Source: Schmidtea polychroa
Lineage: Eukaryota
Direction: 5' to 3'
DNA: 64,000 nucleotides
Assembly: GCA_044892525.1 (NCBI GenBank)
Contig: CM097888.1
Span: 37,448,001-37,512,000 of the forward strand
Shown here: positions 1 to 31,900 of the stretch, piece by piece
How positions within the stretch are numbered: position 1 is the first letter of the stretch
How the letters are laid out: the number at the start of each line of letters is the position of its first letter
Program-made: the position numbers and the translations under genes
Notes under the pieces: generated by a model
Told to the model about the DNA's origin: nothing
Databases searched by the model: none
The model's input: the letters and a program-made list of their open reading frames with translations, nothing else

Positions 1-114
1 ATTCAAGACCTACGACAAATTAGCCATTTATAACATTGGGTCAACCAATGTTATAACCTATCTTTTCGACTTCTTATCAGCAACCAATTAGGTCGTAATT
101 GCGGGGGTTTACTG
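1..114. mobile_element. Right end of a Tigger/pogo-like element
   Basis: Ends GCGGGGGTTTACTG|TA (reverse complement CAGTAAACCCCCGC, Tigger-type TIR plus TA). Internal 12-bp hairpin TTATAACATTGG-gtcaa-CCAATGTTATAA. The left end is outside the window. Confidence 0.5.
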
Positions 115-3100
115 TATTTTTATAATTAAAAAGTTCCGTAATAAATGATTGATGTCCGTAAGTTTTGCACCTGTGCATTTTTTATTATATGGTTATTTTT
201 CTGCTTTTCTATAGTATGTGCCCATAATTTATTGCCAGTGTCCTTATTTCAAGTAAGAATGGATAATTTTTCAATATATAAATTAATTATATCTTATATT
301 AACACAATTCATAACTAAACATACCATAAAATATGCATTTTGGTGTATTTTACAAGAAAAGAAGTCCCCACGCTTGACACACACTCACAACACGCAAATA
401 CAACCCCAGTGACTACTCACAAAGTTGATTTCCGCCAAAACAGTCAGTAAAATATATATAATATTAAATAAATAAAATCATTCTTAGAATGAAATTTATA
501 TGGAATTATATTAAATTATATTTTCAGTAATTAGAAAAGTCGTTAACAACAATCGATAATGACATTATTTAAATTATTAACTATTTTATATTAAATATAA
601 AGAATTATACTGATTTAAACACTGAAGAAAAAGGAAGAGAAAGGTTGTTAAATTGTAGATTTTTTTATGACAGGAAAGTTATTTTTATGTAAAACATTGA
701 TTAACTGTCAAATCATAAAATTTCAATAAAACAAAATTTAATTATTTAAGTGATTTTTCTTAGGTAAATGGAATTTTATTATTATTTTGTTTTTTATCGT
801 ACTTGCTGATGTTAGAAATGACCACAATATTCGAAACATGTTAAAATTCCAAATTCTAATTGGGAAACGCACATTTATAAACAGCGTACTTAGCAAAGTG
901 GGACTGAGTGATAGATTTGTGGTACATAATTTTTTATAATTTGGTATTTTATTTCCAAAAGTTCTAAATTTTGATTTTATATATTTAACCCCTTTACGGT
1001 CAACTTCTTTTTCTGAAATCGACCCTTAATTGGCGACTTTATTTGCGGCTATAAAAAAATTAATCTTTTAATTATTTTTCAAACATCTTTATCAACAATA
1101 ACGAATAACAGTTAACTAATTAATAACAAATAAATCAGTTTTTAGTATTGTTGTAAAGTAATGAGTAGTGGATAACAAGGTACCGAATAAGATGAACAAT
1201 TGTTTTGCAAGTTTTTGTGTCTTAATTTTCCAACCTTTTGTAAGAATTTTTTTGTATTGTCTTCAATTTTATTTATCTGACACACTAGAACAGCATAATA
1301 ATAGTTGTTGTGATGATTTAGCCTATAGCGATGGGGTAATACAGCTACATTGAGGTTTGAAACGTTTTCTGAGATTTTATGGGAAATGTTTTTTGTATAA
1401 TTTTTTATTTTGTTTAGCCCTGCCATACATTCTTGCCCTCAGCAGGGCTAGAGTTGTAGTAGAGTGCATGGTTATTATGGTTTGATGTCTCTATATGACC
1501 TAGAACGACGTATTTACGTTTAGCCGAGAGTATACTCGGGTCTACCGTGCTGCAGTACGCTTTCAAATATATAAAAGGAGTATCCTCGGGTCTACCGGTA
1601 AAGAGGTTAAATGTTAGGAAATAATTTAATACAAACAATAAAAAATAATCATTCAGCTTTGTTTTCATGTTGATTCCTAGAAAATTTTAAGTAAAAATAT
1701 TTAGTTTTTTCAAATATTTTTTGAAATTAAATATTTTAATAATTTTTATATTTCTCAGCAGAGATAAGTGTGAATATATTATTCACTGAATAGGTACCAT
1801 TTCTTATCGTATTTTCTAATAACTCCTTAACCCGGGAACTGAAGTTTGTGAAGAAATCGGAGTCACATGAAGGGTCTTTGGTTAAAATCTGACACACTCG
1901 ACCTTCTAGTTTTGTTGTGGTTTTTGGTGTGAAAATTTTTTATTGGAGGTGCTTTATTCAATCAGAAGACATTCTATAAACTATTTGGATTGATAAAGGA
2001 ATTGAAACACCATATATATCTCCAATGTTAACTTTCATTCGGGATAGTCATCAGTACAAAATGTTCCAATTCAGAATTTTAAAATGAACATTTTTATCAA
2101 GTCTCTGTTTAAATTCTTTTATTGCTGAATTATTATTTTAAATAATTACCATGATTTGGAAAAAAGAAGTTTAATGTAAATTTGACAGTTACTGGGTTCA
2201 ACTCTCTCCTATGTACAAAATGTTTATTAGTACAGTAGTGCGTCAGATTCAATGTGACAATGTAAACTAAAGACAGCAGCATACGTTGAAGTATAGTAAT
2301 AATTTGCATGCTGCATTCATCTCGGTTATCCATAAAATAAAAAAAGTAGCCAGGGTGTTATCAATAGAAATTTATATAAATGATTGATTCTGACGTTTAT
2401 GGCCAATATAACTTGATGGTCACACTTTAGAAGAAGTAAAAAATTCTCTATACATATGTAGGTAGCAAGTCAACAGAAAGTTAAGTAACCGTTCTTTTAA
2501 AATTATTTTTAAAGGAAAATATTTAAGTTTTTTGTTGTTTTGTAATTTTGGTTTGATGTTGCTCTCTTAACAAAATAAAATTTATTTATTTTTATTTAAT
2601 ATTTCACCATTTACCAAAAATAAGAGTTAATTGTTGTATGAGGATAACAGAACATCGAAATTTGTGGTTATCCTTGAGAATGTTATTGACCTAATGCCAT
2701 TTAACAATATACCGTAGATACTTGAAAATATTTGTGTGTTGCGTTATATTCGAGACACTGTAGATATAAAATTGTAAGTTTTATGTGCCGAAATGGTTTT
2801 TGTCCTTCACATTATATTCGTGTCTTGAGCTTTTCGTCCGTTTCTGATATAAATTTCTATCTCGCGGTATACTAGGGTGGCGTTACACTCGAGTATCTAC
2901 GGTAGTGAAATTGGATTAATTTCCTATTCTCAGATTGTTGTTTTTGTTATCGAATCTCGGTGAATTAGTTTGAAATTTTTCTCTTAATTTAGTTTTGACC
3001 GTTCAGAAAATTCAATTTTCCCATTGATTTAAATGTGAGACAAATTAAATTTACTATCTGATCACGCGGTTTGATTCACTTATCACTTGTAAAATTTTTG

Positions 3101-3473
3101 ATATTTTTGATTGAATAACTTTTTTTTTAATTTTATGTTTGATATTAGAATCGTACGTTGATGATATATGATCCTTCCGATATATTTTTATCGTGTACAA
3201 ATTAGCACTAAATATCATAAAAAATTTATTCAATAAATTTGAATCATTTTAAATAAATTACAAAGGACTTTCCAAAGATTTACGATTAAAGCGTAACAAA
3301 ATTTTGATAATAAGATTGTGCACTGCAGCACTATATATTGATTTTTAATAAACAACTTTTTTGTTTTTCAATTAAAAGTTATAAATTGATTTTACAGTCA
3401 AATCAACACTTTAGACTAACTAAATGCTGATTTTAGGTTCTGTATCAAAATATAATTATTATATTTACTTCAG

Positions 3474-4100
3474 ACTGAATGCCCAGAATGGCAGTATAAA
3501 CAACGATGTTTATGTCCAAGTGAAGGAGACTTGAAATATAGATTATTAAGAATCCTTTTCGATGGATTACATATCAATATTGTTGAAGATAGCACATGTT
3601 TGGCGCTTAGTGTTGTTGGACCAGTGCATTTGGTGAATTGTAATTTGCATGGACCAACCACTGAAAAGGGGATTTCTGCCATTCTTCCTGAGTTTTCTGT
3701 AAAACAATTTATAAAACCATTGGGTTTGGATTATTATGTTGTTGATTATTATATATTTGTTAATTTTTGACAAAACAGACATAACTGATTCAGATATCTG
3801 GCTTGAAGGTGGCTCTCTATCTTTAGGAAATGTAGTTCTTAATGCCGGTATTGCCTTACCAATGCTGGATTATCGATCTTGGCAGGATAAATTTTTGAAA
3901 TATCATGATAGTAAATCTAAGCGACTATGGTTTCTTTGGAATGATTTAGATACAAATGAAAAAGATATGTCTTATGTTTGTGGATGTGTCGGAGGTTGTG
4001 CATTTTTTGGGGAAAATTTCCTCAATAACAGATATTCCAGATCATCTAAAGATATTCGTAATATCAATGACAAGGCTGCTTCTTTTGTTAATCGTGAATT
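3474..4100 (+). CDS. BLTP1: BLTP1 exons 3474-3723 and 3779-4100 (55-nt intron)
   Basis: ttcag|ACT acceptor. Reads TECPEWQYKQRCLCPSEGDLKYRLLRI..VNCNLHG, then D-ITDSDIWLEGGS..HDSKSKRLWFLW..CGCVGGCAFFG. Phases 1 and 2 join correctly. Confidence 0.88.
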
Positions 4101-7100
4101 GTAAGTTTTTTCTTAATAATTTAAATATTCTATAATATAACTATACTTTTTCTGGTATTATCAAATGTTAGTAGCCTATTGCATTTATTTATTTTATAGT
4201 TTTCTGATATTATAAAGTATTATTATAAGATCCTGGGTTTCGAGTCGTAGAAAATTATAATTAGTCAAATAAAAGGTTTTTAATTTAATAGTATTAAAAA
4301 AAAGAGTATTAATTGCAAAACTTATCAATAGCATCATGGTCGGTAGCTTTTATGACTGAATTATGAGTGTATAATTTGATGGACATATAATATTGTTGCT
4401 TTACAACAGGAACATTCAATCTGGACTATATTTCCCACTTGTTGGCACTAGGATGTTAAATGAAGCATAAAAAGAAAGTTTAATATTTTACTTAAAATTT
4501 GTCAGTAACATAAATACAGTATTAAATGAATAAAATTATTATTTTAACAAAGATCACAATGTGTTGTCGCTAAAATTATGTGTTATAATCTGTTTTTAAA
4601 AGTGTTAAAGCTCTGTGTTGATTTGACTATATTGATATTCAGTGAGGATCCCAGAAATATATATTACTCATTTGATAAACACTACATAACCTAAACCATA
4701 GATATATCGCAATTATGTAATTCCATGGCAGTCATTTTGAATTCGACATTTTTTATTTTGCATATAAAAACATTTATTCTTGATGTTCTTATTGCAATGT
4801 TCTTATTGCAATGTTCTTATTGCCGTATATTTCAGCGTATAAGGCGACCGTCAGATAAGACGAGGTACAAAATTAGCGCAAATTTTTATGATTTATCATA
4901 TATCGGTTGTAGTAGTATAAATACAACTAGTATAAATACAACTAACTGTACTGTAATACTTTCTTTTATATCGGTTGTATAAGACGACCCACAATTTTCA
5001 AGGGTGATTTTTTGACTTTAAGGGTCGTCTTATACGCCGAAATATACGGTAGTCTTGATGAGATTCTTTTGGTAATGTGTCTTGTACTCTGTCTCTTGCG
5101 AAGTCGAAAATTACATGGGAAAATAAATACGTATTGTTAGAAGCTATAACATTTAATTCTTCTGTCATCAAAATAAATTACTAAGACTATTAAATCCAAA
5201 AATTATATTTCATTAAATCTGATTATATAAACAAATATTCTTGGGACATTTTCTAAATTTTAATTTCAACCAAATATCAACATACCATCGCATTCATACT
5301 TGAATTTCAATTTTATTAAAGATTATTTTATTTTAAAATTTCAATTATCATTTCAATTTTAATATCTTAAAATAATTTAAGTTTCAATTAAAATTTTACA
5401 AATTTTAATCATGAACTAATTTAATTTAGTATTTTAATTTTAACACCTCACACGTATAATTAAACTTTTTAGTAATTTAACGGTCGTTAATGACAATCGA
5501 TAATAACAATATTTAAATTATTAATCTAGCTCGTGATAAAATGATGTGATAAACCTTTGCTGTAAGTTTCAAGTTTATCAAAAACTCGCAGCAAAAATTT
5601 ATCATATCATTTTTTAATTATTTTTTTGTGAATTGATGCTGTTACTAGGAAACCATTTTTTCATGTTATTAGTAATATATAAAAACTTTGTAGCTGAATT
5701 ATTTTAAAAGAAATATTTTTGATATTTAGGTAAGGTCTTTCTGTAATTTTCACCTTGAAATATCTCTTGTTCGCTTAATTACGAAATTTAATCAATCTCT
5801 CCTATTAAATCTGTAGTGCCTTTGACTTTCATTTAATAAATTCAGTAGCAAATACACTTAAATTAATTAAATTAATATACGTTTTTAAATCAAGAAAATT
5901 AAAATACATTATTTTAATATACAAATATACACTTCCTCCATCTTTTTAATCAATAAAATATGTTCTCAAAACTCTTTAATTGAAACAATTTGCGGATCAT
6001 CGAAATACTTGACCTATATTTCGAATTCGCATTACAAATGATAAATCTCGTAAAGCTGATACTGCTACTCGTCGTCAGATCACAGGACATGCAATCAATG
6101 GGTATGTCAAGTTCAAATCAACAATTACGCTCGGATCGCAATTGAATATCCAACCAACCTGAAATCAGGAATCGTATTCAATGAAATGCCATTCCTAAAT
6201 TCGAAAATATCAAATACACTCTGTAAAAAGATGTGGAATTCAATTAATAGATATGACCGTTTAGTATTATGTTCCTACAGAATCTTTATTTGTTTTTCTT
6301 ATTGTATTTCTAGTTGGATTCGGGGAAATATCATTTTTTAAATTAATTAAAATATATTTTAAAAATCACTTCAAAATTTGTTAATATTTCAAATTGATTC
6401 TAAATATCTCATATAGTTTTTATTGTTATTTAATATGATATTCATCTCGTTGAAATGACACCAGGTGATTAAAATACACAGCTGAAAATAAAATATTTCT
6501 CATCAAACCTAATAATCATTAATTGGCATATCAAAATTATATATATTTGGGAATTTCATTTTCAATAGATTAAATCGTTTCTTATTATTTATATATTTTG
6601 AAAATGTTTTATTTATAATAAATACAATGTCAATTGAAAAAAAAATTGAAGATGAAAATTGTATAACATTTGACAAATTCAACTTTATTAATGGAAAACA
6701 AATTATTAAATCCAAGTTTAATGAAATCCAATTTAATTATGGGTAAATATATTAAATTCATATGCTTTCACTAAATTTCATATGTTTATTTTTTTACTTT
6801 TAAAACTTATTTTGATAAATAAAATTTTGTAGACTTGGAAAAACTAAACTTCTAACTTTTGGTGAAAGTCTTTTTGAAAAAGGAAAATGGATATTTGAAA
6901 GGCACTCTGGTGATAATTGTTGTGAAATCACTTCCGGTTGGTTTTTATTGAGGGAAAAACAGGAAAGAGACAAAATAATCAATTTACATGTTTGTTTTTG
7001 TGGATTTCCAGTTACTATTTTGAACAATTTCCAGAACTCAACATCACTTTCTAATTCTAATTTGGAAGTGGAAATGGGAATGCCCGAAGACGAAGAACCG

Positions 7101-10100
7101 ATTTTAAACAACAGTCAAACGTTTAGTGAAACTCAATCAACAGATGATGATGCAAGATTACCTGCTTTCAATAATGAGCCTAATAAATTGAGGAGAAAGT
7201 TCTCCCTGAAAAGTCTTATTTCATGTGCTTCTAGTAAATCGACTAGCAAATCCGTTCACAGTAATAGGAGTGTCGGAGATTCTGATGATGAGAAAAAAAT
7301 CATAAATAATGCTTATCAGTATTGCAATGATGGAGAAAATGAAGAAAGTTCTGGTGAGATTAGGGCAAAATATGTTGGTTAGTTTCGCAATATATTAAGA
7401 TTCGACTTTATTGATTGTATATTTAGACCTTCGTGGACAATTGCACAAAAGTATTACAGAAAGCAATTTGCTGTACTCAGCATACAGGCGTCATCTTGCT
7501 ATTTACAGTTGCAGTCACTGGGCAGTTCCGGTCAACACGCGACATTATTGGACAAAATATCATACAAATCGATTGGCAGTGTTTCAATGTACTCAAGATG
7601 GATTTACACCGAAGCTAATTGTTATGAGATCCCATGCTAAACGCAGCCATCGCGTGAAACAGAAAGTCGAGATGGACTACACGTCATATTCAAAAAGATT
7701 CACAGACCATGGTTACCAATCAATTTAATTTTAAATTATATAAATTATATTATTTCTAGAATCATTGGATAGTGGCTCCTCAGATTTGACAGCAAAAACA
7801 ACAGTTTCGATTAAATTTAACAATGCCATCGATATTCTATTAACTCCTTTGTTTGTGGAATGTATGACAAGGTATGTTCATTGCATTTGGTTTATTATGA
7901 TGAAATCCCTTCTAATTTGCAATGAATTATAATGTAGCACAGTTCATTTTTCAGATAGAATTTTACCTATTACCGTGATGAAAGAAACTACAGAGATTTT
8001 TGAAGTCCATCAATATTTTTATCGCTTTCCTTTTTTAGACCATTAGTTCCGATCCGTCCAATTTCTCGTATTGATTTGAAGAAATGATACTCATATATGT
8101 AGAAAGGTTAATTTACCGCACTAGTGATAACTCATAAAAGTTTTCTATCAAAATAGTGATGATAACTCTCTGAATCACAACAAGAACAGGAAAAATTATG
8201 ATCGTAACTAAGGAATCTTGTAAAGATCATAACTGTAACTAAGGAGTCTAAAACATTTGCACTTAAATTTTGTTACTTATATGCATAGGAAGGTTAATAA
8301 TAAGTTTCCTATCGAAATAGTGACCGTAACTATCTTAATCGTAATTAAGTAGTTTTGTAATGGTTGTGACCGAAACTAAGTGGTCTATAACATATACGGA
8401 GCTAAATACATAAGAAAAGTTTGTAATCTGTCGACCTTAAGCATTAAAGTACACATGTAGGCAATTATATTAAAAAAAAAAAAAACACCTTTATTTTTTG
8501 TGTAACTTCTACATGTTCTGTATGCCTCTTGTTTCTACCTTCCCTTTAATGTTTATCCACTGATTTTCAAGTCGGGGCTGTTATCTAACTAGTAAAGCGC
8601 CTGGATTTTCTGGTCTCGAAATCACTGCATTTAACATTTAGCAGGGCATTATAGCACTAAATAACACATGGGTGTACTTTAATTTGTTATCTACTATCAG
8701 AAAGTTTATTTTATATTCCATAACTTTTGTAAAAAACTATTTTAAAGTGTTCTATTTGTCGATTGTATAGTCCTTTTAATATGTAATTGTAATTATAATG
8801 GCTAAGAAATATACAAAATAAGAAGTCAGGAAATGCACCAATTAGTTGACCTAAATATTTATAATGAAGATAATGTGAATATTTCGTAAATATTTCGTAA
8901 TGTATTATTTATGATTTTCCATTATTTAAAATTTCCATTGAAAATGAGAAATAATGCAAATATAAATGTTTTCCCAGTGTGGCATTATTTTCAGAAAGGA
9001 CCGGTTTTATTCTTATTATAAATATCATTATCGTAATATATTCTTCAAAAGGTTTTGAGGTTATTTTGATCTAATAAACAGAAGCAGTTTGGTAAATCTC
9101 TGCATTCGTAGTTAAAAAATACCATTTTATCCCAGATTTTTTTTTAAATAATTAAATCATTATTTATTTAGAAGTACTAACAATTTAAGTTTTCATTTAT
9201 GGAAGGACTTTTATTTCAAATACCTTCACTTTCAAAGTTTCCGCTCCTCAAACTCTTTATTCACAAATCTAACATTTTTCATTACTCACGTGTATCTGTT
9301 TTTGTAAATGATTCTGTATTTTGTTTCACTATCATCTTGAATTTTTAGAATAGCTTCTGTTTCTCTTCCAGATCAAGAGTTTTATATTTTGTTTTTAATA
9401 GGGAAAAAAATTCTTTATACAAAATTTCGAAATGCCCAACAAAAAACGAATTAGTGAAGTAGTTTTACCCGAAATAATGATCGTTAAGGAAAGTAGTTCG
9501 ATCTGTATCAATATTTCATTAATTTTAAATTTTAAATATATGTTCTGAAAAAAAGCAAAAAGTACCTAATAACTTTTTGAAATATTTAAAAAAAATTTAA
9601 TTTTATGTTTATCAATAATAGGAAAAAAATTATGATGTACTGTTATTATAGATACGTTACAATTTTGACACCTGAATTGTCACATTCTTTTACCAGCACT
9701 GTAGTGAACAGATTACATTTTCAAAGTGTTCAGTTAACTCAAGATAGGTGTAAGCCAATGAAAGGAACTACTTCTGATCCAGATAGTAGGTTATCTACAA
9801 AATGTGCATCATTGAGAAATAATAAAAGCAAAGACGAGCTAAACAAGGAACATGAGCCTCATACAAATTCGTCAGAAAACGTGTTTGAAACTGCAAGCCA
9901 TTGGGTCCAAAGAAAGGTTACTTCAGTTCTAGTTCCTAATATTTCCGGATTAACACCGCTTATGGAAGAAAATGCATTGATTGATTGTAAAAGATTTTAA
10001 TAATATTAATATTTTAAAAGAAATTTAGCAAAAAAACCTGATTACACTGTAATAAATATGGAGAATATACCAATGACTCCTTTGGATGCTAAAGACTATA

Positions 10101-12190
10101 CAGATGGCGCTACAGATCCTAATTTTGATTCTTTCGGACTGACTAGTCCTACATCAGGAGAATCAACACGTATTAGTAGAACTCAATTTTCAGTTACTAT
10201 AGATCGTATCAATGTATGTGTCATGCAATTATATGCTATAGAAGATATTGTCAACAGTGACACTCTTGTCTCAGGTCTCCATGATTTAACCTGTGTTTCT
10301 CTTTTGTCTTTATGTCTCGATACTGCATCTTTTCAGGTTTGGATTTATTTTGATCATGCTTTCATATTTCTATAATTATTAGTTGCTAATAAATACTCGC
10401 AGTGAAGCAATTCAAGGATCAGATACTCTCGTAAGAGCATTAAGAGAGTTAAAGAGATCGAGAACAAAACAAAACATAAAAACTAATGAGAACCCATCGC
10501 CACACTTAAATTCTGAAAAACTTGGTGCAGTTACTTTAGATAGTCTGTCGACCAATAACATTCAGGATAATGATGGATTTCGTAAGACTGAAGAAATAAT
10601 TGCTAATGTTGAAGTGAAGCGAGTTCATGGACAATTGCGACGACTGACTAGAGATAGTCAGTTTTCATCCGATGTCCTTTTGACTGCTATTCCGTTTAAT
10701 ACGTCTAAAGTAATTTTAATTATTTAATTGAATAATAATAATAAATATTATTATTATTATTACATAACCGTTTTATCACAGACTCACACTAGTAATAATA
10801 TATTTTTATCAAGAAAGAACGTATTAAAATAAACATTTTATTGATATAAGCACGGTAATGATTTATTAATTAAAATACGCCACTCAAACATCCGTTTTAC
10901 ATTATAATTAAATACTTATTAGCAATCTAAAAGCATTTACTCATTTTATAATGAAGAAAAAAAAGAATATTTAATATATATGAAATGAAACCAAATAAAA
11001 AGTAGCTTAGTATTACAAAATATGAAAGGAGTGACATGAATGTTTAGAAAAGCTATACATTACCTTTTGGACGAGAGTAGGTAGTTATGTGCACTCTAGA
11101 TCCATGTGCACNNNNNNNNNNNNNNNNNNNNNNNNNNNNNNNNNNNNNNNNNNNNNNNNNNNNNNNNNNNNNNNNNNNNNNNNNNNNNNNNNNNNNNNNN
11201 NNNNNNNNNNNNNNNNNNNNNNNNNNNNNNNNNNNNNNNNNNNNNNNNNNNNNNNNNNNNNNNNNNNNNNNNNNNNNNNNNNNNNNNNNNNNNNNNNNNN
11301 NNNNNNNNNNNNNNNNNNNNNNNNNNGTAATAATTTTATTTTTTGTTTTAATCATCGATTACGTAATAATTTAAAATTTTTTTTAAAACATCGATTACGT
11401 CATTGATTTTAATTTTTTATAAGAATTTTTTATGTCATTATACTTGAAATTTAATTCTCTGTTAAATGAGACTATGATGTAATCAAAATTCTGAAATTTC
11501 ATTTTTAGTACACGATTTTTAAATTTACACATCTTTTTAAACAAATTGAGATATTTTCACTCAAACAATATATAGATAGAATTTTAATCTCTATAAGATG
11601 ACATCAATATTTACTTCAAATTCATAATCATAACACCTTAAACAATGTATTTTTCAGCCAACTTTTACATACACACATATTTTCAACTTTTAAAAAATAC
11701 AAATTATTCATCTATACTTAACTCATAGTAAATAATTATATTAAAAGACATATTAAAAGATGTATTAAAAACTAAACATTTATTAAAATCCTAGAGAAAT
11801 TCGATCACTATCTAATTTCCAAATCGGTGATATGACATCTTTCTCATCTATTTTATATCCCTGTATTGACATATTTACAAACCATCTTTCCCCATCTTTA
11901 TATTCAATTTTATATAACAAAGACATATTGCATACAAAGACACACATGACTCATCATACTTTTTAATATATTACGTTGCGGTATTTTAAAATTTAAATTT
12001 ATTTTAAAAACTTATTTTGATGGTTAAGTAGACAAAATAAGATTATTGCACATACTTTGGATTATCATATATATAGTCTATCAGACAAGATATTCTGTTC
12101 CTCTACGGGTAATGGTCACAAAGATACTGCTAAAACTTTATTACACACAATGTATAAAAAATCTTATTAGTGTCCACACATGCGACAAGA

Positions 12191-12224
<34 letters not shown>

Positions 12225-12759
12225 TTCAAAGTATTATAATTATATATACTCCTAGTCTATCCGACAAGATATTCTGTCCCCCTATGGGTAATGGTCACAA
12301 AAGTAAAGGTCACAAAGGTAAAGGTCACAAATGTACTGCTAAAAATATTCAAGACAAAACTTTAATAAAGAAATTCTAAATATTATACTTTAAATATACA
12401 CTAAAATTTATTAACACATTGGGTAATGGTCGCAAAGGTAAAGGTTACTAATGTACTGCTCGCAAAGGTAATACTCACATTCAACATGTCGTAAATTATT
12501 TTCAAAGTATTATTATTATTCATTATTAAAATTAAAATTATTATTAAATTCTGACCAACTTAAATCAATGAAGGGATAGGACAAAAATATATTACGTTGC
12601 GGTATTTTAAAATTTAAATATATTTTAAAAAACTTATTTTGACACTAAAGTTGACTTATTTAACAAAGATATAATTATTGCACATGCTTTGCATAAATAT
12701 TATTATTATTTTTTTTGAATTTTCAATATTTTCTTTCAAAGTATTAACACGCGCGGGAG

Positions 12760-12791
<32 letters not shown>

Positions 12792-12901
12792 GAAAAAGTT
12801 AAAATATGGTTTACACATACACAACCTATTAACAATTATTATTGCAAATATTAGTGAAAAACCTAAAATATTTTTTACACACATATACAACCCATTAAAC
12901 T

Positions 12902-12932
<31 letters not shown>

Positions 12933-15900
12933 TATTATTAGTCAAAAACCTAAAATAATTTTTACACACTAAGTTATGGGGTAGAGAATTATTATATGTT
13001 TGCAATATTCTGTGTTTGCCTCTACAGGAAGTTGTCAATAAGGAGCGATAATTTACAATTTTACACATACCTTGTTTAACATGGGTGTATATATTCCTAG
13101 TCTATCCGACAAGATATTCTGTCCCCCTATGGGTATTGCTAGCAAGAGTACTACTCACATTCAACATGTCGCAAGGGTATATTAATTAAGGTTAGTAAAT
13201 AAAACTTATGACACATACTATTTTTAATAATATTTAAACGATAAAAATCAAGACAAGAGAGGACAAGGCAAAGTTTATGCATTTATTATTGCCAGGCCTA
13301 ATGAGCAGTGACCAAATATCTGTGCCTGAAAGACACGGTGGATATTTGTTCGCGTCCACAAGGGTCGTCTGTGCCTCCCCCAAGTGGGGTCAGAAGAACC
13401 TGGACATTATAGTTCTCCGTACGGAACATTACGCCTAGCATGGGTAGTCAACTACCAGCACATTTGAAACGTATTAAAAATATATTTCAAAATACATGCG
13501 TCATTGGCACTATAACCAAATTAATTAATGTTTTCACTAACACAAATATATATTTACAGAGGCCTCCCACTAGTTGGATTACAACCGCCCACCACGACGA
13601 TCAGCTTGCGAATATATATTAATTAAGGGATAAAGAGGGCCCCCCAACCCTATTATATTTAATTTACAAAATAATGTTTTTAAAGGGCTTCTCCGTCAGT
13701 TTTCTCACTCTTCTGATTTTTTTCTGGAATTTGTCGGTAATCTAGCATTATTATTATTATTTAAATTATTATTATAAATATTATAATTATTATTTATTAT
13801 TTTTAAGATTTTATTCTGAGAGCAAATTCTAATAATATCAACAAATTTGTATTTATTTTAATTACTATTATCAATTACTTAGTTGGCGAAGTCCTAAACA
13901 AAGAACTCTATTGAACCATCTAATAAAACAGAATATGATCATCTTTTAAATTAATTAATAAAATATTTTTATTATGATAAAGAAATAAACCTAGTTCTTT
14001 CCGAATTTCATTTATATATCCACAGGTAATGTCAGTAAGTTGGATTCATCTATAAATTTATATCACATTTATTATTTAAAGTTAAACTACTCACTGAGAA
14101 TGACTGAGATAAAGTTTCGCAAACAATAAACTGTAGTTCTCTGGATAGAAACGAAATAATTTTCAAAAAATCCACTAAAATTTTATCATAAATAGTATTG
14201 AATAAATAATTTTGAAATTCTGTTCTAAAATAGAGTTATAAAATTATTTAATATACAAATTAACTTTACTTTGAATTTAAAAAACTAACTATAAAATTTG
14301 CTTATTATTACCAAAAATTTAATATCTTTATAAAAATATTTTCAAGTAATAATATTTATTTTATAGTTCATCATCTTTAATTAATCATTTTTACGAAAAA
14401 TAATTTAATTATAACTTGTTTAAAACTTTGTTTAAATATAAAAATAAATTTTATAGTTAGTTTTTTAAATTCAAAGTTAATTTGTATATAAAATAATTTT
14501 ATAAATTTAATGAATTGATATAAATTAAAATTAAGATTAATTAATGTTATGCTTAAATATTTTTATAAAGATATTAAATTTTTGGTAATAATTTATGTAA
14601 GAAAAATAAATTTCCAATAAAAAGTAAAATTATTTTTAAGTAATAATATTTAATCTTTATATAATCATTTTTTACGAAAAATAATTTAATTATAACTTGT
14701 TTAAAACTTTGTTTAAATATAAAAGCAAATTTTATAGTTAGTTTTTTAAATTCAAAGTTAATTTGTATATAAAATAATTTTATAAATTTAATGAATTGAT
14801 ATAAATTAAAATTAAGATTAATTAATGTTATTTACTTATGCTTAAATATTTTTATAAAGATATTAAATTTTTGGTAATAATAAGCAAATTTTATAGTTAG
14901 TTTTTTAAATTCAAAGTAAAGTTAATTTGTATATTAAATAATTTTATAACTCTATTTTAGAACAGAATTTCAAAATTATTTATTCAATACTATTTATGAT
15001 AAAATTTTAGTGGATTTTTTGAAAATTATTTCGTTTCTATCCAGAGAACTACAGTTTATTGTTTGCGAAACTTTATCTCAGTCATTCTCAGTGAGTAGTT
15101 TAACTTTAAATAATAAATGTGATATAAATTTATAGATGAATCCAACTTACTGACATTACCTGTGGATATATAAATGAAATTCGGAAAGAACTAGGTTTAT
15201 TTCTTTATCATAATAAAAATATTTTATTAATTAATTTAAAAGATGATCATATTCTGTTTTATTAGATGGTTCAATAGAGTTCTTTGTTTAGGACTTCGCC
15301 AACTAAGTAATTGATAATAGTAATTAAAATAAATACAAATTTGTTGATATTATTAGAATTTGCTCTCAGAATAAAATCTTAAAAATAATAAATAATAATT
15401 ATAATATTTATAATAATAATTTAAATAATAATAATAATGCTAGATTACCGACAAATTCCAGAAAAAAATCAGAAGAGTGAGAAAACTGACGGAGAAGCCC
15501 TTTAAAAACATTATTTTGTAAATTAAATATAATAGGGTTGGGGGGCCCTCTTTATCCCTTAATTAATATATATTCGCAAGCTGATCGTCGTGGTGGGCGG
15601 TTGTAATCCAACTAGTGGGAGGCCTCTGTAAATATATATTTGTGTTAGTGAAAACATTAATTAATTTGGTTATAGTGCCAATGACGCATGTATTTTGAAA
15701 TATATTTTTAATACGTTTCAAATGTGCTGGTAGTTGACTACCCATGCTAGGCGTAATGTTCCGTACGGAGAACTATAATGTCCAGGTTCTTCTGACCCCA
15801 CTTGGGGGAGGCACAGACGACCCTTGTGGACGCGAACAAATATCCACCGTGTCTTTCAGGCACAGATATTTGGTCACTGCTCATTAGGCCTGGCAATAAT

Positions 15901-16252
15901 AAATGCATAAACTTTGCCTTGTCCTCTCTTGTCTTGATTTTTATCGTTTAAATATTATTAAAAATAGTATGTGTCATAAGTTTTATTTACTAACCTTAAT
16001 TAATATACCCTTGCGACATGTTGAATGTGAGTAGTACTCTTGCTAGCAATACCCATAGGGGGACAGAATATCTTGTCGGATAGACTAGGAATATATACAC
16101 CCATGTTAAACAAGGTATGTGTAAAATTGTAAATTATCGCTCCTTATTGACAACTTCCTGTAGAGGCAAACACAGAATATTGCAAACATATAATAATTCT
16201 CTACCCCATAACTTAGTGTGTAAAAATTATTTTAGGTTTTTGACTAATAATA

Positions 16253-16283
<31 letters not shown>

Positions 16284-16393
16284 AGTTTAATGGGTTGTAT
16301 ATGTGTGTAAAAAATATTTTAGGTTTTTCACTAATATTTGCAATAATAATTGTTAATAGGTTGTGTATGTGTAAACCATATTTTAACTTTTTC

Positions 16394-16425
<32 letters not shown>

Positions 16426-16960
16426 CTCCCGCGCGTGTTAATACTTTGAAAGAAAATATTGAAAATTCAAAAAAAATAATAATAATATTTATGCAAAGCA
16501 TGTGCAATAATTATATCTTTGTTAAATAAGTCAACTTTAGTGTCAAAATAAGTTTTTTAAAATATATTTAAATTTTAAAATACCGCAACGTAATATATTT
16601 TTGTCCTATCCCTTCATTGATTTAAGTTGGTCAGAATTTAATAATAATTTTAATTTTAATAATGAATAATAATAATACTTTGAAAATAATTTACGACATG
16701 TTGAATGTGAGTATTACCTTTGCGAGCAGTACATTAGTAACCTTTACCTTTGCGACCATTACCCAATGTGTTAATAAATTTTAGTGTATATTTAAAGTAT
16801 AATATTTAGAATTTCTTTATTAAAGTTTTGTCTTGAATATTTTTAGCAGTACATTTGTGACCTTTACCTTTGTGACCTTTACTTTTGTGACCATTACCCA
16901 TAGGGGGACAGAATATCTTGTCGGATAGACTAGGAGTATATATAATTATAATACTTTGAA

Positions 16961-16994
<34 letters not shown>

Positions 16995-19900
16995 TCTTGT
17001 CGCATGTGTGGACACTAATAAGATTTTTTATACATTGTGTGTAATAAAGTTTTAGCAGTATCTTTGTGACCATTACCCGTAGAGGAACAGAATATCTTGT
17101 CTGATAGACTATATATATGATAATCCAAAGTATGTGCAATAATCTTATTTTGTCTACTTAACCATCAAAATAAGTTTTTAAAATAAATTTAAATTTTAAA
17201 ATACCGCAACGTAATATATTAAAAAGTATGATGAGTCATGTGTGTCTTTGTATGCAATATGTCTTTGTTATATAAAATTGAATATAAAGATGGGGAAAGA
17301 TGGTTTGTAAATATGTCAATACAGGGATATAAAATAGATGAGAAAGATGTCATATCACCGATTTGGAAATTAGATAGTGATCGAATTTCTCTAGGATTTT
17401 AATAAATGTTTAGTTTTTAATACATCTTTTAATATGTCTTTTAATATAATTATTTACTATGAGTTAAGTATAGATGAATAATTTGTATTTTTTAAAAGTT
17501 GAAAATATGTGTGTATGTAAAAGTTGGCTGAAAAATACATTGTTTAAGGTGTTATGATTATGAATTTGAAGTAAATATTGATGTCATCTTATAGAGATTA
17601 AAATTCTATCTATATATTGTTTGAGTGAAAATATCTCAATTTGTTTAAAAAGATGTGTAAATTTAAAAATCGTGTACTAAAAATGAAATTTCAGAATTTT
17701 GATTACATCATAGTCTCATTTAACAGAGAATTAAATTTCAAGTATAATGACATAAAAAATTCTTATAAAAAATTAAAATCAATGACGTAATCGATGTTTT
17801 AAAAAAAATTTTAAATTATTACGTAATCGATGATTAAAACAAAAAATAAAATTATTACNNNNNNNNNNNNNNNNNNNNNNNNNNNNNNNNNNNNNNNNNN
17901 NNNNNNNNNNNNNNNNNNNNNNNNNNNNNNNNNNNNNNNNNNNNNNNNNNNNNNNNNNNNNNNNNNNNNNNNNNNNNNNNNNNNNNNNNNNNNNNNNNNN
18001 NNNNNNNNNNNNNNNNNNNNNNNNNNNNNNNNNNNNNNNNNNNNNNNNNNNNNNNNNNNNNNNNNNNNNNNNNNNNNNNNNNNNGTGCACATGGATCTAG
18101 AGTGCACATAACTACCTACTGACGAGCAATCTCTCGTTTTAGAATTTGTACCGATTGTAGATTTCTTCGATTCTTAAAGATTTCAGATGCTAGTAGAACA
18201 AGAATTACTGAATTTTTATCCTAATAATGTTTATTGATGTAATTAGTTTTAAATATTTCGTAGCTTCAGCAAGTAACACTATAAACGAAATATTATGTTA
18301 AAATCTTGACAATTCTTACAACCATTCCATTGTCTGTGTCTATGATATCAACATTTTGAAAGCTTTCTTTATAGATGAGGAAGATTAATGTCGCATAACT
18401 GATGATTAAATCTGACTTTTTCTTAGTAAAAAATGTTGAATAATTTACAGTACTAACTCAGATTAAAAACATCTTACTAAAGACTTTGAAGGTGTTATAT
18501 AATACCGAGAATTAAAATTTGTTTAGATTGACTTTCAAAATATTTGGATAAATGTACAGATTGTCGTTAATGTCATGCAGCAACCTTTATGAGTAACTCT
18601 GTATATTGAAATCAAAAAGGCGGACAATTGATTCTAAAATCGTAACATTTCATAAGAAAATAAATCTTTAGATATATACTTTCCATTATGAAATAAAATA
18701 CCTTTAAATATTTTTAGGTAACTAAATTATACATAATTATTTTTGATTATAGTTCTACACTTCTTAAATAACAACTATTAAAACCAAAGCACGCCGTTTT
18801 CTTAAAATTATATTGTGAGAGTATTATAGCATTCACAATTTACATTGAAGTGTGTTTCACTTTTCAGTCCATCTGCGAAAAATCCTTTTGGATATCATAT
18901 GATAACTCCTTTTTTTGGTGCTATATATTCATACTCATAGATTTCCCGTATTTTCAATAATTTACATGTATCAATTGTAATAGTGTTGGTTTTTTTATTT
19001 TTTAATTTATTTTACGAATTTTGTGAATTTTAATGAAATATAGCAACTTGAAATTTGAAATAACGAATTTATAATATTTTTTTAGCGGATTTTAATGTAG
19101 ATTAAAATTTTGAATGAATAATTTTTATTGGAATTTTAAAAAATTAATCTTCCGTTGGGCATTTTTTCGAGAAATATTAGAAAATTTCTCAATTGGTAAT
19201 TAATTATTCTTGGGTTGTTTGAATAATTTAATAAAATTGAGATTAAAATATAAATTTCCCAGCCATTTTATAAAATCGATAGATAATCTATAGAATGTGC
19301 ATTATTTTTCTTTTTTTTAGATGATGATAAATCAATACGTCTAATTTAATCAATGTATTAATGGTAAAAATATTTAATAAATGATATAATAAGCTTTTGC
19401 TGAAAGTTACAAGTATTATTAAAATATAAAAATTTTAAACAATGATATCTTTCCTCAAACAGATTTAGAAAATAACTACCTATAACTAGTTGTGTAATTG
19501 ACGAATTTGTTTTTTCAGCTACATTATCTGCCTTTTCAATAAATCTTAATTTTAAACTCAAGGCCATACAAAATATTTTCTTCAAAATTCTAAAGAATAA
19601 TCTTTAAATTTTGCCTTCCAATGTGATTTTCTCTATTTCTCATAAGTTGAACTCTGGGAAGTTTATTATTGTCGTTAAAGTTTTGGTACGAAAAATTTCT
19701 GACGAGAACTAATAGTTACTAAATTTGGAATGAGAAAAAGTTTGGTAATATATTTTAATTTTATTATAATGAACTAGCCCTTATGCTGCCTTTCGTTTTT
19801 GTTAATAAAAAAACTATTAAGAATGTACTTTAAATATTATTCTGATAGAAAATATATAATGTCTTCATTAAGTCATTTACATTTATTATTTTTTTAATTA

Positions 19901-22900
19901 TTGATTTTGGTAAATTCTGTCAACGGGAAATGTGTTTGTTAGATTTTGTCAAAACATCTTCGCTTAGTTCAAAATCATAAGCCATTTAGTAATCCAAATA
20001 TTTATTAAAATAAATATATCTCAGATATATCTAGGAATATATAAACAAATTAAAAACGACACTTTCTTTTTTATTTAATTTTACCTAATGTTCAATAAAG
20101 TTTTTTATTATTATTTTATTATTAAAACGTTTTTCTTAACTTGCTTTCTTGTATGTTTGGGTCAAATCTTTCGATCGAATTTTGAAGCACTTCCCATAAT
20201 CCAATTTCACTTAAATTTTGTATACATGCTTTCTTTCGATGACAACACAATATTTTAATACTTTCAGAACTTAATTATACTTAACCGATCTGTTTTAGGT
20301 GAAAAACGCACGTATGGCGCAACGCATTCATATTTTTATAAATTAATAAACATATTCTTCTTTTTAGTCCACAAGAAAAACGTTGTATTCTAAACAATTT
20401 TTTACATATATTACTATAAATTACAACATTCAAAATTTTAAAATATAAGTTAAAATACTTTAATTTATATAAAAATCTTTTTATCTAATTTATTTAGTTT
20501 AAAACTTAATTTTAATGCCCTTTGATGATTATGGTTTTTAATTAGATTTTTGTGCCACGTATAAAACATATATCTCTTTGTAACTTTCAATGGAAGTGCA
20601 TCTTATTTGCTACATATTCATATAATTAAATTTTTGAGCTACATTATTTGAATCATTTAATTGCATTTTGAATTATGTTGTAATTTAATAATAATCAAAT
20701 ATACAGGTATTTTTTGCATTTGAGTCAGATCCTGGAGGTCCATTATCAAATTGTGTAAGACTTGATGAAAGAAGCGCTGGTTGGATTATGTTTGAATGTG
20801 GGCTAGAAAATTTGACATTAAAAGGGGTCAGAAAAAGAGGATTTCCTGATAGTGTTGATGACTATTCGAAAGTGAGATTATATTATTTTATTCTTGTAAA
20901 TATTGTATCGTTTTTAAATAAAATTCGAATAATAATCTTGGAATAAATTATGTCATAGAAAATATATGTTTTAATACTTAGTTGCATTTAAATTAAAAGT
21001 ACATGGATCCCCTAATTTACATAATAAGTAGATTCCTTAGAGTATTATGTAAATTGGAACAACAAGTACGAAATAAAAAATGTGTACCGAATTTTTTTGG
21101 AATTATAGGACGCACTATTTCTATTTTATTTTAAATCTGCGATGCGTCTTATATATAGAGGGTAGAAATGGGATAAATAAATGGTAATTATTTTTTATGT
21201 TAAACATTATATATTCATATATACTAGTTGCATGAATATTCACGGAAGTAAAGTTATTTGCCTATTTATATAATAATTGCCATAATATATAGATCAATAA
21301 AAATATAATGGTATTGATTGATAATGAACAAACGGACGTTTTTTGTCTACCTACATACTGATTCGGTCCACCACCAAACGAAAAAATAATATGAGAATCT
21401 TGAAAACAAAAAGAAAACAAGAAAACTTTTCTTAGAAATTTACCAAAATTTTCTGAATTAAAATTATAGTTGAAAAATTGGGTCATAAATCGCAGAAGCA
21501 TCCATGTTTCTATTCAGGGATTGCATATTCGAAATTCGAGAATTCCGGAATTCGTTTTCATAAATATAATTTCGAAAATTTCCCAGCGAATTCCGAATTT
21601 AAAATTTATTTTTTCGTGTTATCTCCAACTTGTAAATTGTGTTTTCGTTCTGTACATATTAATATTCTACATTCTAAAAAAAGACAATGCAAAATTACAG
21701 TTATTCTTCATAATACAAGTAGACATAGAGTAAACATTTCTAAATTGCAGCTTAACATTTAAACGGTTTCATTTCTTCATTTCATATCCATATGTAATAA
21801 TAATAAATGTAAATTACATTATGTAAATCACATTTATTACATTATGTAATGTAGCATAAAGTTTCACACAACATTTTATATTTCGTATAACTTCGTGTTC
21901 GTGTCTTATATTTACGATTTGCAATAGTGTTGAGATTTGTTTAATCGAGTATAGTGTATATTGACATATTTGGACTTTGTTTTCTGTACAATCATCAATA
22001 TTTTTTAAATAGGTAAGTAAATAATAGCAGTTTTAATTTAATAATTAAATTATTTTTATTAGAATATCCCAAAATGTCATCAAAAGAAATTTATTCGGAA
22101 TACACAAAGCAATTTAAAATTCTGTTTGGATTCATTTTTTGAGAGGATCAAAAAAACTAACAGCAAAATGTAAAATATGTAATGAAATAGTAAAAACTTC
22201 TGGTTCAGCGACAACACCGCAGCACACGCATTTAAGAACAATACACAATATTAATGTATTAAAACGTGATTTCGTGCAAGATAAAGTTCCAGAAAGCAAC
22301 TCATCAAAAATGGTGATAACAAATTATTAAGTCAACAAAAAAGATGAACAACTTTCTGCAATTGTATCACGAATGTGTGCCTTGGATAATATGCCATTCA
22401 AAGTCTTTTGTACGTCTATCGATTTGAGAAATTTATTTTTGGCTAGAGGCGCTCAAGATTATGTACTACCAAAATCACCTAACTCATTTCGCAAAATGGT
22501 TTTAGAATACCCACAAAAATGCGTGCCAAAATGATGCAGGATTTAATTAATTTCAAAGAAGATGGAACACGATTTTGCTTAACTATAAATGAATGGACAT
22601 CATCAAGAAACCGATGTTATTTAAATGTGAATGTCCATGGCAAGAAACAGTTTTGGAATTTAGGTTTAGTTCGTGTTGAAGGACGTTTCCCTGCAGAGAA
22701 ATGCATTACGGCCCTGAAAACCACATTGCAAGACAACAATCTAAATATTACGTCCATAACAACTGATGGGGCATCTGTGATGCAAAAAGTTGGGCGGCTT
22801 TTACCATGTAATCAGCAGTTGTGCTTTGCACACGCGATACATTTAGCTGTAGTTAATGTTCTGTATAATAATTCGAATGCAACTGATAAATTGGTGGCTC

Positions 22901-28900: not shown

Positions 28901-31900
28901 ATTCTGTTACCTATGTTTGAAAAAGATTATTTCAAAAATTATAATGATCCGATGATCAAGGTAGAAAAGGAAATTATTAATCAAAGATAATTTCATATTT
29001 TAATAAATGTTACAATTTTACCAGGTTGAGTCAAAAGATATTTTACTTTTTATGTGAATATTTTGTGTACACAAATTGTTATAACTCTGATCATATTATT
29101 CATATTATGATCTGGTACAAAATATTCTTAAATAACTAAAAAACATGAATAACCTTTGACTCAACATGATATTAAATTTTTCTAATAATTAATATTTATT
29201 TGTTAAAATTTTGATGAAATAATTCAATTTCGTCTAATCCGGATAAAAATTTATAGGTCATTTATGAAAAAAAAATGTATTGAAATATTTAGATCCAACG
29301 AAACTTAGATGATTTTGTGGTTTTTCAAATTAAATTTTTACTTCTTTTTGCTCCTGGTAAATGTTCTTTCAAAATCTATATTTTTAAATAATTATAATGA
29401 AACGTTTTTTATAAATATTGAAATTTATATAAAAAACATTTCCTTTAACATTGAATAAATTTCGAGATTCAGTTTTTTGTCTTTCTCGCGATTTAAATAT
29501 ATATTGTCTGTAACAGAATATTTTTTTCCAATTTCACCACTGATTTTTTTCCAAGCTTCAAGACTATAAATCAGTAAATATATCAATGTTTTTGATTTCA
29601 ATGTCTTCAAGCTTTTTAATAAATGTAACAGAATAATTTAAAGATAGATAATTTCTACAAATTTTGGTTAATTGAAAATTTTTAATTTCTTTATCTAGGC
29701 TTTTAATTTTTATGACAAATGGAGAACAAGTCTTGCCAGAGCAATCCGATATGAACCCACTTGTCAAATTTTCACTTTAATCAGAATGTATCTTCAGTCA
29801 GACCCAAATTTAATTATGGAAATTGAGCGAAGTTTGAAAGATGATACTCTACCTCAAACAGTAACTTTACAAAGGGGAATTCTTGCTCTTACTCGACATT
29901 GGCAACACCTTGTTGAAGTAGACCCTCAATTGAAAATATCTCGTTTTCAAAATTTGAATGATATTAATGATTTCAACCATATAAATGTGGGCAGTATCCA
30001 AAGAATATGTACTCCTGGCGGATTAATCCATGTATCTACTGCTAACAGTCAACTATATCACTTCAATTCTGAAGAGCCATGTGTCAATAAATCACCCGTT
30101 TCGGATTATGCCCATGATATTTCCATTCAAAATAATGAAAATGTAAACGTCGAAAACCCGATTATGGAAAGATTTTTGCATGATGCCAATAAAGCCTCAA
30201 GCAGCAAATTTATGAAGGATCTAAATGAAAACAGTCCAGTATCAGTTGATTTCCAACTCGATCCTCAAGATGACGTTAGTTATTGCTTGTTGATTTTTGT
30301 AATTTGATTTCATCACTGCCTCGATACATACTTAAATTATGACAAAACATCTATTCTAAATCAACAAAATTTATCGCTATTTTATGAAAACAAACTTTAT
30401 ATTTTTTATAATTTTCTAAAATTAATTCATTTTAATATAAATTAAACTCTTTTTTTGGTTTTCACTATATCTTAGTGATATTATTAAAATGTCAGAAAAA
30501 AATTAATATTTACTTAATAAAAATAGAAATTGATCAAATATGATTTTGTGAATTTTCATATTTGGATCGTCAGTTTCACATGATTTTTAATTTGGTAACA
30601 AATTGACAAATATTTGTTTTATTAGCAACATGATTTGTCAAATGAAATGTTTGAAATATTTCTCTAGTGTAATTTTTACAGTTATTTTGAAGCACTTTCT
30701 TGACCTTTTGAAAATATTTGTGTTGAGGAGAATTGGTTTTGACATGGAATTCTATAAAAATTAGTCTTAAAATAATTTAAGAGTCGAAAATTGCATTTTT
30801 TTGCACTATAAAAATTAGTTATTCATGGACAAAAAAACTATTATTCTCGTATTGAATAACAATAACTACCTTAACTTGATTTATTAAATATAAACGCCAC
30901 TAGCCATTTGGTTTTCATCTTGAATCCCATTTGAAAAAATCCATTCCTATGAATTCAGGGTTTAGTAATAGACATACTCAAACATCGTGAATTCATGTTA
31001 AAAGTACTAAAAATTGGCCAGTTATTTGAGTAAGATAAAAATGCGCTATAATTGATGATGGGATATTTATATTTCAGCAATACCGTGATTATTGTGTTGC
31101 ATGACATTGGTACATCTAATAGTATCAAATTTATTTGACATGAACCAATTACACGTCAGTATTAACGCTAGGGGCGGAGATGTGTCAAAATAATTTATTT
31201 TTAAGCTTTTTTCAATTAAATCATAATTTTGATCTTTATGAAATAAATATCTTTCTTTCTACACTATCTTTCTTTCTCAGGCTGTTCAAAGATGCAATTT
31301 TGTCCGAGTATTTGGGAATGAGTCTACCAAAATAATTCTCTTTCTCTATCCATACTATGGGAGAACAATTCATTACTGGATCTTTGCATCGTGAGATGAC
31401 TCCCATTTCCTCAAGGCGTGATAATTCCTCGTTGATTCTTGTTTCCATTGCCAATGGTACGGTTCTATTTCTTTACAGAATACATTCCCGCCCTCTTTTA
31501 TTGGTATCATTGTGGCTTGAATTCCTTTGATTGTGGGAAGAAATGTACTCTTCATCGGGACATTGTGATTGCTGGTTTCTGCTTCTAAAAGATCTCTGCC
31601 TAAAAGACCATATGTTTTATCTGATTCAATAACAGTTAATGTTATGACCTGACGCTTGGTTTTAGTTTCTACATCAGAAAGAAACTGACCTCGGCACATC
31701 ATCGTATGACCATCGTATGCTGACAATCTAACTTGTGAATGGGTTAACTGAGGTTTACTTATATTCTCCCACATCCTGGACGATATTATTGACACATCTG
31801 CGCCCGTGTCAACCTGCATAAGCACCTCGTGCGAGTTTATTTGGCAATTTACTAGCTCTTTTCTACACGAATTAATTGCGATGATTGTTCCAATATCTGA

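Follow-up and report, generated by a model that had tools for sequence, protein, structure and literature searches.

A gene-less palindrome in an intron of BLTP1

The DNA analysed here is a 64,000-nt stretch of the Schmidtea polychroa genome (assembly GCA_044892525.1, contig CM097888.1, positions 37,448,001 to 37,512,000, forward strand; "the window"). Positions 11076 to 18120 are occupied by a complete, gene-less palindromic element of 7045 bp, delimited by inspection of its ends, comparison of its arms and protein searches. It starts with AGTAG, ends with CTACT and is bounded by a target-site duplication (TSD), GACGAG, read directly from the sequence at 11070-11075 on the left and 18121-18126 on the right. 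The left arm (11076-14341, plus strand) measures 3266 bp and the right arm (14844-18120, minus strand) 3277 bp; masked parts included, the two make up 93% of the element. Arms were compared over unmasked sequence, the masked stretches being 215 and 226 nt long. Between 11327-14341 and 14844-17858 there is not a single mismatch in 3015 bp, so that the right arm is the exact inverse of the left over this length, and the outermost 36 bp at the two ends also form an inverted pair without mismatch. The inverted match stops at the centre, with no inward extension, leaving 502 bp between the arms. An earlier note on this DNA, written from the letters alone, had described such ends, a perfect GACGAG duplication and an inverted repeat covering about 93% of the element; the observation is real and is confirmed.

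The same note had called the element gene-less, and no intact Polinton gene was found. Setting aside frames that run through N, the element holds one stop-to-stop frame of at least 80 aa, an AT-rich one of 85 aa. A tblastn search with 12 proteins of a gene-bearing relative gave a sole match, to the C-terminal 26% of a 157-aa open reading frame (ORF) of the relative's terminal repeats. The remnant comprises about 41 C-terminal codons on the minus strand (approximately 11783-11910, mirrored at about 17275-17402). Open frames and this search together revealed no pPolB and no retroviral-like integrase, and the tblastn search no ATPase, protease or capsid gene.

Exons of the host gene BLTP1 (KIAA1109) were matched upstream of the element at 10581-10712 (plus strand) and, as the next detected match, downstream of it at 20761-20877 (plus strand); the element is therefore intronic. 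BLTP1 itself, with very long exons, extends over 3465-45842 of the window (plus strand). Its closest relatives among named sequences belong to flatworms, in keeping with a probable flatworm host. One of its introns also contains a retroviral-type protease frame (31373-32431, minus strand), and PRP8 lies at 50268-58516 (plus strand).

Origin of the ends and arms

A 28-nt sequence from the terminus occurs 181 times without mismatch in the assembly (781 Mb), whereas its reversed control does not occur at all, which excludes a chance origin of the element's ends. For the 175 termini listed out of 181, 68 pairings fell within 45 kb and 40 ends stayed unpaired. The census described below covers 63 elements with both ends; outside it stand the 40 termini left without a partner, the 6 that were not listed, five pairings longer than 27 kb and two elements without matched ends. 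A perfect 6-bp TSD surrounds 55 of the 63 elements, inverted flanks surround 5, and 3 have neither. By content, 24 are full-length, 14 carry the polymerase with an incomplete or missing integrase side, 22 are gene-less (the window element included) and 3 are of other kinds. The earlier note had proposed Polinton termini and a genome-wide search for an autonomous Polinton with the same ends and for other copies with 6-bp TSDs; all were found.

The gene-bearing family, which we call family A, is represented by a full-length map copy of 15,031 bp with terminal repeats of about 1.44 kb. This copy encodes an integrase with a chromodomain, an A32-like ATPase, a C5 protease and a TBP-like protein, and its capsid candidate has a predicted double-jelly-roll fold (pLDDT 90; Foldseek E 2.6e-15). 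Searches of Pfam and PDB sequences returned no match for the polymerase, which we take to be a pPolB from its family-B motifs and its gene context. The 15-kb family A is a Polinton, and most of its full-length copies are more than 99% alike. The TBP-like protein (154 aa; Pfam PF00352, E 2.7e-15; L051:2060-2524, minus strand) is encoded head to head with the ATPase. Both family-A terminal repeats contain the 157-aa ORF (L051:763-1236, minus strand; L052:4005-4478, plus strand), which belongs to no Pfam family and has a 45% identical homolog in a second polymerase family. One 19.6-kb element with family-A ends (L113-L114) bears two polymerase genes of other families, 57-59% identical to that of family A, and the second of these genes has at least 40 near-identical copies. 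Two pairs of elements (L089-L090/L091-L092; L064/L073) have identical 100-bp flanks, so that each pair is either a duplicated insertion or an assembly duplicate.

Sharing its ends with a gene-bearing family of the same genome, the window element is in this respect what a non-autonomous Polinton derivative should look like. Sequence comparison shows the family-A part of each arm to be short, about 835 bp (11076-11910, plus strand, mirrored at 17275-18120): the terminus is exact and identity is 98.5% over 11327-11910. At 99.9%, the element matches a longer gene-less palindrome (10.8 kb, with arms of 5.1 kb), copies of which occupy four other sites, each flanked by a different TSD. Along the parent arm, the match runs forward from 261 to 3278 and then backward from 3792 to 261. 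The left arm corresponds to parent-arm positions 1-3278 (99.9% over the unmasked part), and the centre (14342-14843, minus strand) aligns to parent-arm positions 3279-3780, a region with tandem repeats of about 281-290 bp. The 502-bp "spacer" of the earlier note, correct as to length, is therefore parent-arm sequence and not a unique segment. At the central junction (14330-14341) lies a 12-bp sequence that the parent arm contains twice, at 3267-3278 in forward and at 3781-3792 in inverted orientation; of the 4264 parent-arm positions, no more than 22 have an inverted 12-bp partner of this kind. The 10.8-kb parent is dispersed, each copy having a TSD of its own; the 7-kb variant is single-copy, as is its junction. 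Read from these alignments, the window element is a centre-shortened copy of the 10.8-kb palindromic family.

Two routes lead to this one product: a fold-back with a 502-nt loop, or a 3.8-kb deletion between 12-bp direct repeats of the parent. Since the parent was already palindromic, the 7-kb form could equally have arisen by such a deletion, before or after insertion. A palindromic element did integrate at this locus, as the note, provided that the assembly is right, had concluded from the TSD, which does not show that it was 7 kb long at the time. The left flank is single-copy, and no paralogous empty site was found in the genome.

Inward of the family-A end, the arm resembles a different set of palindromes. 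The segment 12704-13670 (plus strand, mirrored at 15515-16481) aligns at 87-90% identity with arms from a large family of gene-less palindromes of about 14 kb with other ends; from 12061 the likeness is patchier, at 69-86%. Within this segment, 44 nt (13562-13605, minus strand, mirrored at 15580-15623) resemble the 5' head of signal recognition particle (SRP, 7SL) RNA (Rfam E=4e-5), scoring 29.8 bits against a gathering score of 70 for RF00017 and covering the head only. The folding energy of this head is no better than that of shuffled sequences, and the head was not found in four polymerase-bearing copies tested. A stretch of 24 nt from the head, carried by gene-less palindromes, occurs 1641 times in the genome without mismatch (control, 0). 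Among the first 100 matches listed, 66 form 33 inverted pairs, the members of each lying less than 15 kb apart, a pairing which suggests that the large family has several hundred palindromic members. Ten were retrieved: all ten have arms longer than 4 kb, and eight have matching AGTAGTA ends and a 6-bp TSD, with lengths of 11.0-14.7 kb. These AGTAGTA ends are also those of a palindrome bearing a second polymerase, 59% identical to that of family A.

In a second element, too, family-A ends are attached to this body on both sides, with the breakpoint at family-A position 1196 as against 790. Family-A ends on a body with unlike ends, joined at two breakpoints and on both sides each time, make it likely that ends were exchanged at least twice and copied onto both sides of the element. 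Three other candidates were set aside. As a direct source of the arm, the second polymerase family gave only 76-87% identity over 90-230 bp; a hammerhead-like look of 13290-13340 has no Rfam match; and what looked like a family-A segment taken up by many gene-less copies turned out to be an (AAT)n microsatellite.

Doubled polymerase ends and concerted arms

Family-A copies in which the polymerase end is doubled and the integrase side lost were found at ten loci, corresponding to nine independent events (two loci share flanks). Plain deletion cannot yield such copies. Their arms are 2.9-7.4 kb long and a TSD is present at seven of the nine events. The polymerase end was doubled in all nine and the integrase end in none (two-sided binomial 0.004 by our own arithmetic, on an incomplete census). 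All mapped junctions differ, showing overlaps of 2-7 bp or small inserts. Eight fold-backs compared with their nearest full-length copies have 0-3 mismatches, and each of the eight loci checked retains at least one uninterrupted polymerase frame. The second Polinton family also includes polymerase-end palindromes, one of them 12.1 kb long with a TSD. The idea that a single Polinton end had been copied back on itself, advanced in the earlier note for the window element, holds for these family-A fold-backs and is not supported for the window copy itself, with its family-A share of about 835 bp per arm and its already palindromic 10.8-kb gene-less parent. One standard end has taken the place of the other in the nine gene-bearing derivatives; for the window copy, a fold-back would leave a sequence no different from that left by deletion. 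A further palindrome (L168-L170, G000:C1:114.54 Mb; 6718-18215 of the joined stretch), 11.5 kb long with 4.65-kb arms, has a third kind of AGTAG end and a TTTGTC TSD and is inserted in a family-A capsid gene.

The two arms of a palindrome tend to carry the same changes. In one 10.8-kb copy, nine private single-nucleotide polymorphism (SNP) columns are present in both arms, and both termini have an identical substitution. Among ten members of the large family that were compared, arm differences have a median of 1.1 per kb within elements and of 22.6 per kb (minimum 11.4) between elements. In 23 integrated full-length family-A copies, private SNPs were one-sided 50 times and two-sided 10 times; there is therefore no strong homogenisation of arms in place. 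The data fit an equalisation of arms at replication or insertion rather than by steady in-place conversion. In one member of the 10.8-kb family (L061-L062), a 718-bp segment is confined to a single arm; most relatives have the segment, and three siblings lack it in both arms. This one-arm state is possibly an intermediate of arm equalisation.

Probable template switching, its rivals and known systems

We consider the window element to be a trans-mobilised Polinton satellite whose palindromic form arises and is maintained through template switches while the DNA replicates by protein-primed strand displacement, and give this reading a probability of roughly 60%. Its starting points are observed (the ends, the TSD, the parentage, the mosaic arm and the fold-backs of relatives), and to these it adds replication steps that we infer. 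Judging from the ends and the TSD, the polymerase and integrase of the 15-kb family A likely copy and insert the element. Excised linear DNA would replicate by strand displacement, in the course of which the growing strand could fold on itself or switch to the displaced strand; copied back to its starting end, the switched strand would yield a molecule with one end twice. Such fold-back molecules would need nothing beyond their ends and would integrate in trans with a 6-bp TSD. In later rounds the arms would re-pair and so stay identical, a change at one end being copied to the other, and a swap to another family's terminus by recombination would be copied onto both ends in the same manner. 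The polymerase-end bias may reflect the survival of those halves that are able to replicate themselves. Passages of PMC11071308 support a terminal-protein domain in Polinton pPolB, and a paired-repeat replication model of Polintons is restated in part of 10.64898/2026.07.28.741278. A broader proposition, which we hold to be less likely than not, is that snap-back genomes from free protein-primed replication constitute a heritable class of palindromic satellites, that adoption of an end by one recombination switches the helper, and that among gene-bearing fold-backs only the polymerase half survives.

Several observations weigh against replicative template switching. Both arms of the window element equal the left arm of its closest sibling at every SNP, which fits either route to the shortened form, and the junction, as said, is single-copy. 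Ten of 12 listed outside sequencing runs contain part of the stretch; among the pieces listed, contigs from four of these runs (three studies) that cover 13900-14620 do not bridge 14330-14341, although contigs cannot show absence, and they carry parent-type repeats and fixed differences from the window. No gene-bearing element examined provides an arm source for 13670-14843. The within/between comparison of arms is based on a small sample, ten elements out of several hundred. As for the polymerase-end rule, it is limited to family A: one outer element, which belongs to another family, has its integrase side flanking a nested copy on both sides. Free DNA, replication intermediates and enzyme activity of the elements enter the argument solely by deduction from sequence. 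Finally, the five of 63 elements with inverted flanks and no TSD (L067, L068, L101-L102, L161-L162 and L165-L166), where the inversion spans from 221 bp to more than 4.7 kb, indicate that inverted copying can extend beyond an element into its surroundings, an outcome also expected of chromosomal repair. For one of the five, which is located inside the integrase gene of a different Polinton, a nested fold-back is a possible explanation.

Repair is the most probable alternative, although we judge it unlikely, at perhaps one chance in a handful. A break in one arm would be mended from the other arm or another copy by host synthesis-dependent repair, whose overshoot would lengthen repeats and swap ends; Polinton enzymes would only move the finished product, and the centre would be lost in place, long palindromes being unstable. 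A repair model is published for repeat extension and for end/interior chimeras in Galileo, as set out in parts of PMC3573991. It would account for inverted flanks, one of them of just 221 bp, and is compatible with nine gene-bearing fold-back junctions that each represent a single event and with a unique window junction; a deletion between the parent's 12-bp direct repeats suffices to explain the shortened form. Against it, one-sided mutations prevail in integrated full-length copies (the 50 to 10 ratio above), the palindromic parent and the large family have both spread to many sites as palindromes, and repair gives no reason for polymerase-end doubling in nine of nine events, unless its products were filtered by later replication.

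An artefact, in which sequencing or assembly trimmed or folded what is really an ordinary 10.8-kb copy or one arm, is quite improbable. Perfect identity of the arms in their unmasked part, a single-copy junction and the lack of a bridging contig among the listed pieces of the four outside runs could point to such an artefact. Yet the masked parts differ in length between the arms, the flanks differ from each other and carry the TSD, and the left flank is single-copy. Four longer siblings stand whole in the same assembly with their arm differences kept, and the junction sits on a 12-bp repeat of the rare kind described above. The outside runs, given their fixed differences from the window, are of other strains. 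A cut-and-paste element of Foldback/Galileo or Mutator type, with AG..CT ends by coincidence and a non-Polinton transposase, which long, internally repetitive inverted arms might bring to mind (passages of PMC3573991), has next to no likelihood: the exact terminus and 98.5% identity over 584 bp shared with gene-bearing Polintons largely refute it, the TSD is 6 bp as opposed to 7 bp in Galileo, and no transposase was seen in any gene-less copy in a screen limited to Polinton proteins and open frames.

The finding draws its weight from features of the whole family (end bias, end swap and concerted arms) more than from the window copy, and these features are a likely record of the way in which Polintons replicate and their passengers can change helpers. 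As stated in part of 10.64898/2026.07.28.741278, Polinton replication rests on a model and no cycle has been watched in animals. A genome with young full-length copies, polymerase-end fold-backs of many sizes and hundreds of gene-less palindromes allows direct predictions, namely free hairpin or protein-linked linear forms, arms identical at insertion and simultaneous end swaps on both sides, for which it is natural test material. If the snap-back reading is true, the genome would be a fossil record of a replication cycle still unobserved. The locus also illustrates that multi-kilobase near-perfect palindromes can abound in an animal genome, even in an intron of a conserved gene. Surveys that demand five Polinton genes, as described in part of 10.1101/2023.08.22.554363, would overlook such gene-less palindromes.

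Polintons typically have AG..CT ends. With Polintons/Mavericks (Polintoviricetes) the window element shares AG..CT terminal inverted repeats (TIRs), a 6-bp TSD and ends 98.5% identical to those of a resident family with pPolB, integrase, ATPase, protease and double-jelly-roll capsid. The ranges given in part of 10.1101/2023.08.22.554363 are 5-8 bp (usually 6 bp) for the TSD, 100-1500 bp for TIRs and 13-25 kb for length; the TSD lies within its range, whereas the element falls outside the other two, being gene-less, 7 kb long and made up for 93% of 3.3-kb arms, each a mosaic of two families. Fragments of related elements that keep TIR and TSD are described in a section of 10.64898/2026.07.28.741278.

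Palindromic derivatives are known for the linear DNAs of phage phi29 and of yeast pGKL1 plasmids, and panhandle repair for adenovirus. Snap-back genomes of adeno-associated virus are treated in passages of PMC10924063. Like snap-back or copy-back defective genomes, the elements described here have one end twice around a loop, short homologies at junctions and, presumably, a dependence on helper enzymes. They differ in being integrated with TSDs and inherited, and are known here from sequence alone; the window copy differs further in coming from an already palindromic, gene-less parent.

Galileo, according to parts of PMC3573991, has a P-superfamily transposase, a 7-bp TSD and repeats of up to about 1.3 kb. 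As in Galileo/Foldback of Drosophila (same source), the longest repeats are in non-autonomous copies, repeats extend, and chimeras combine the ends of one subfamily with the interior of another. Unlike the present elements, with arms of 3-7 kb and a polymerase-end bias, Galileo has no polymerase of its own; and in place of a P-type transposase partner and a 7-bp TSD, the window element has Polinton ends and a 6-bp TSD. The literature searched, including parts of PMC3014272, PMC6431247, PMC8502044, PMC5499653 and 10.1101/2024.01.15.575659, with supplements and Repbase outside the search, gave no account of palindromic or snap-back Polintons; expansion of Polinton repeats is mentioned in a passage of PMC3573991, which cites Jurka et al. 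2007.

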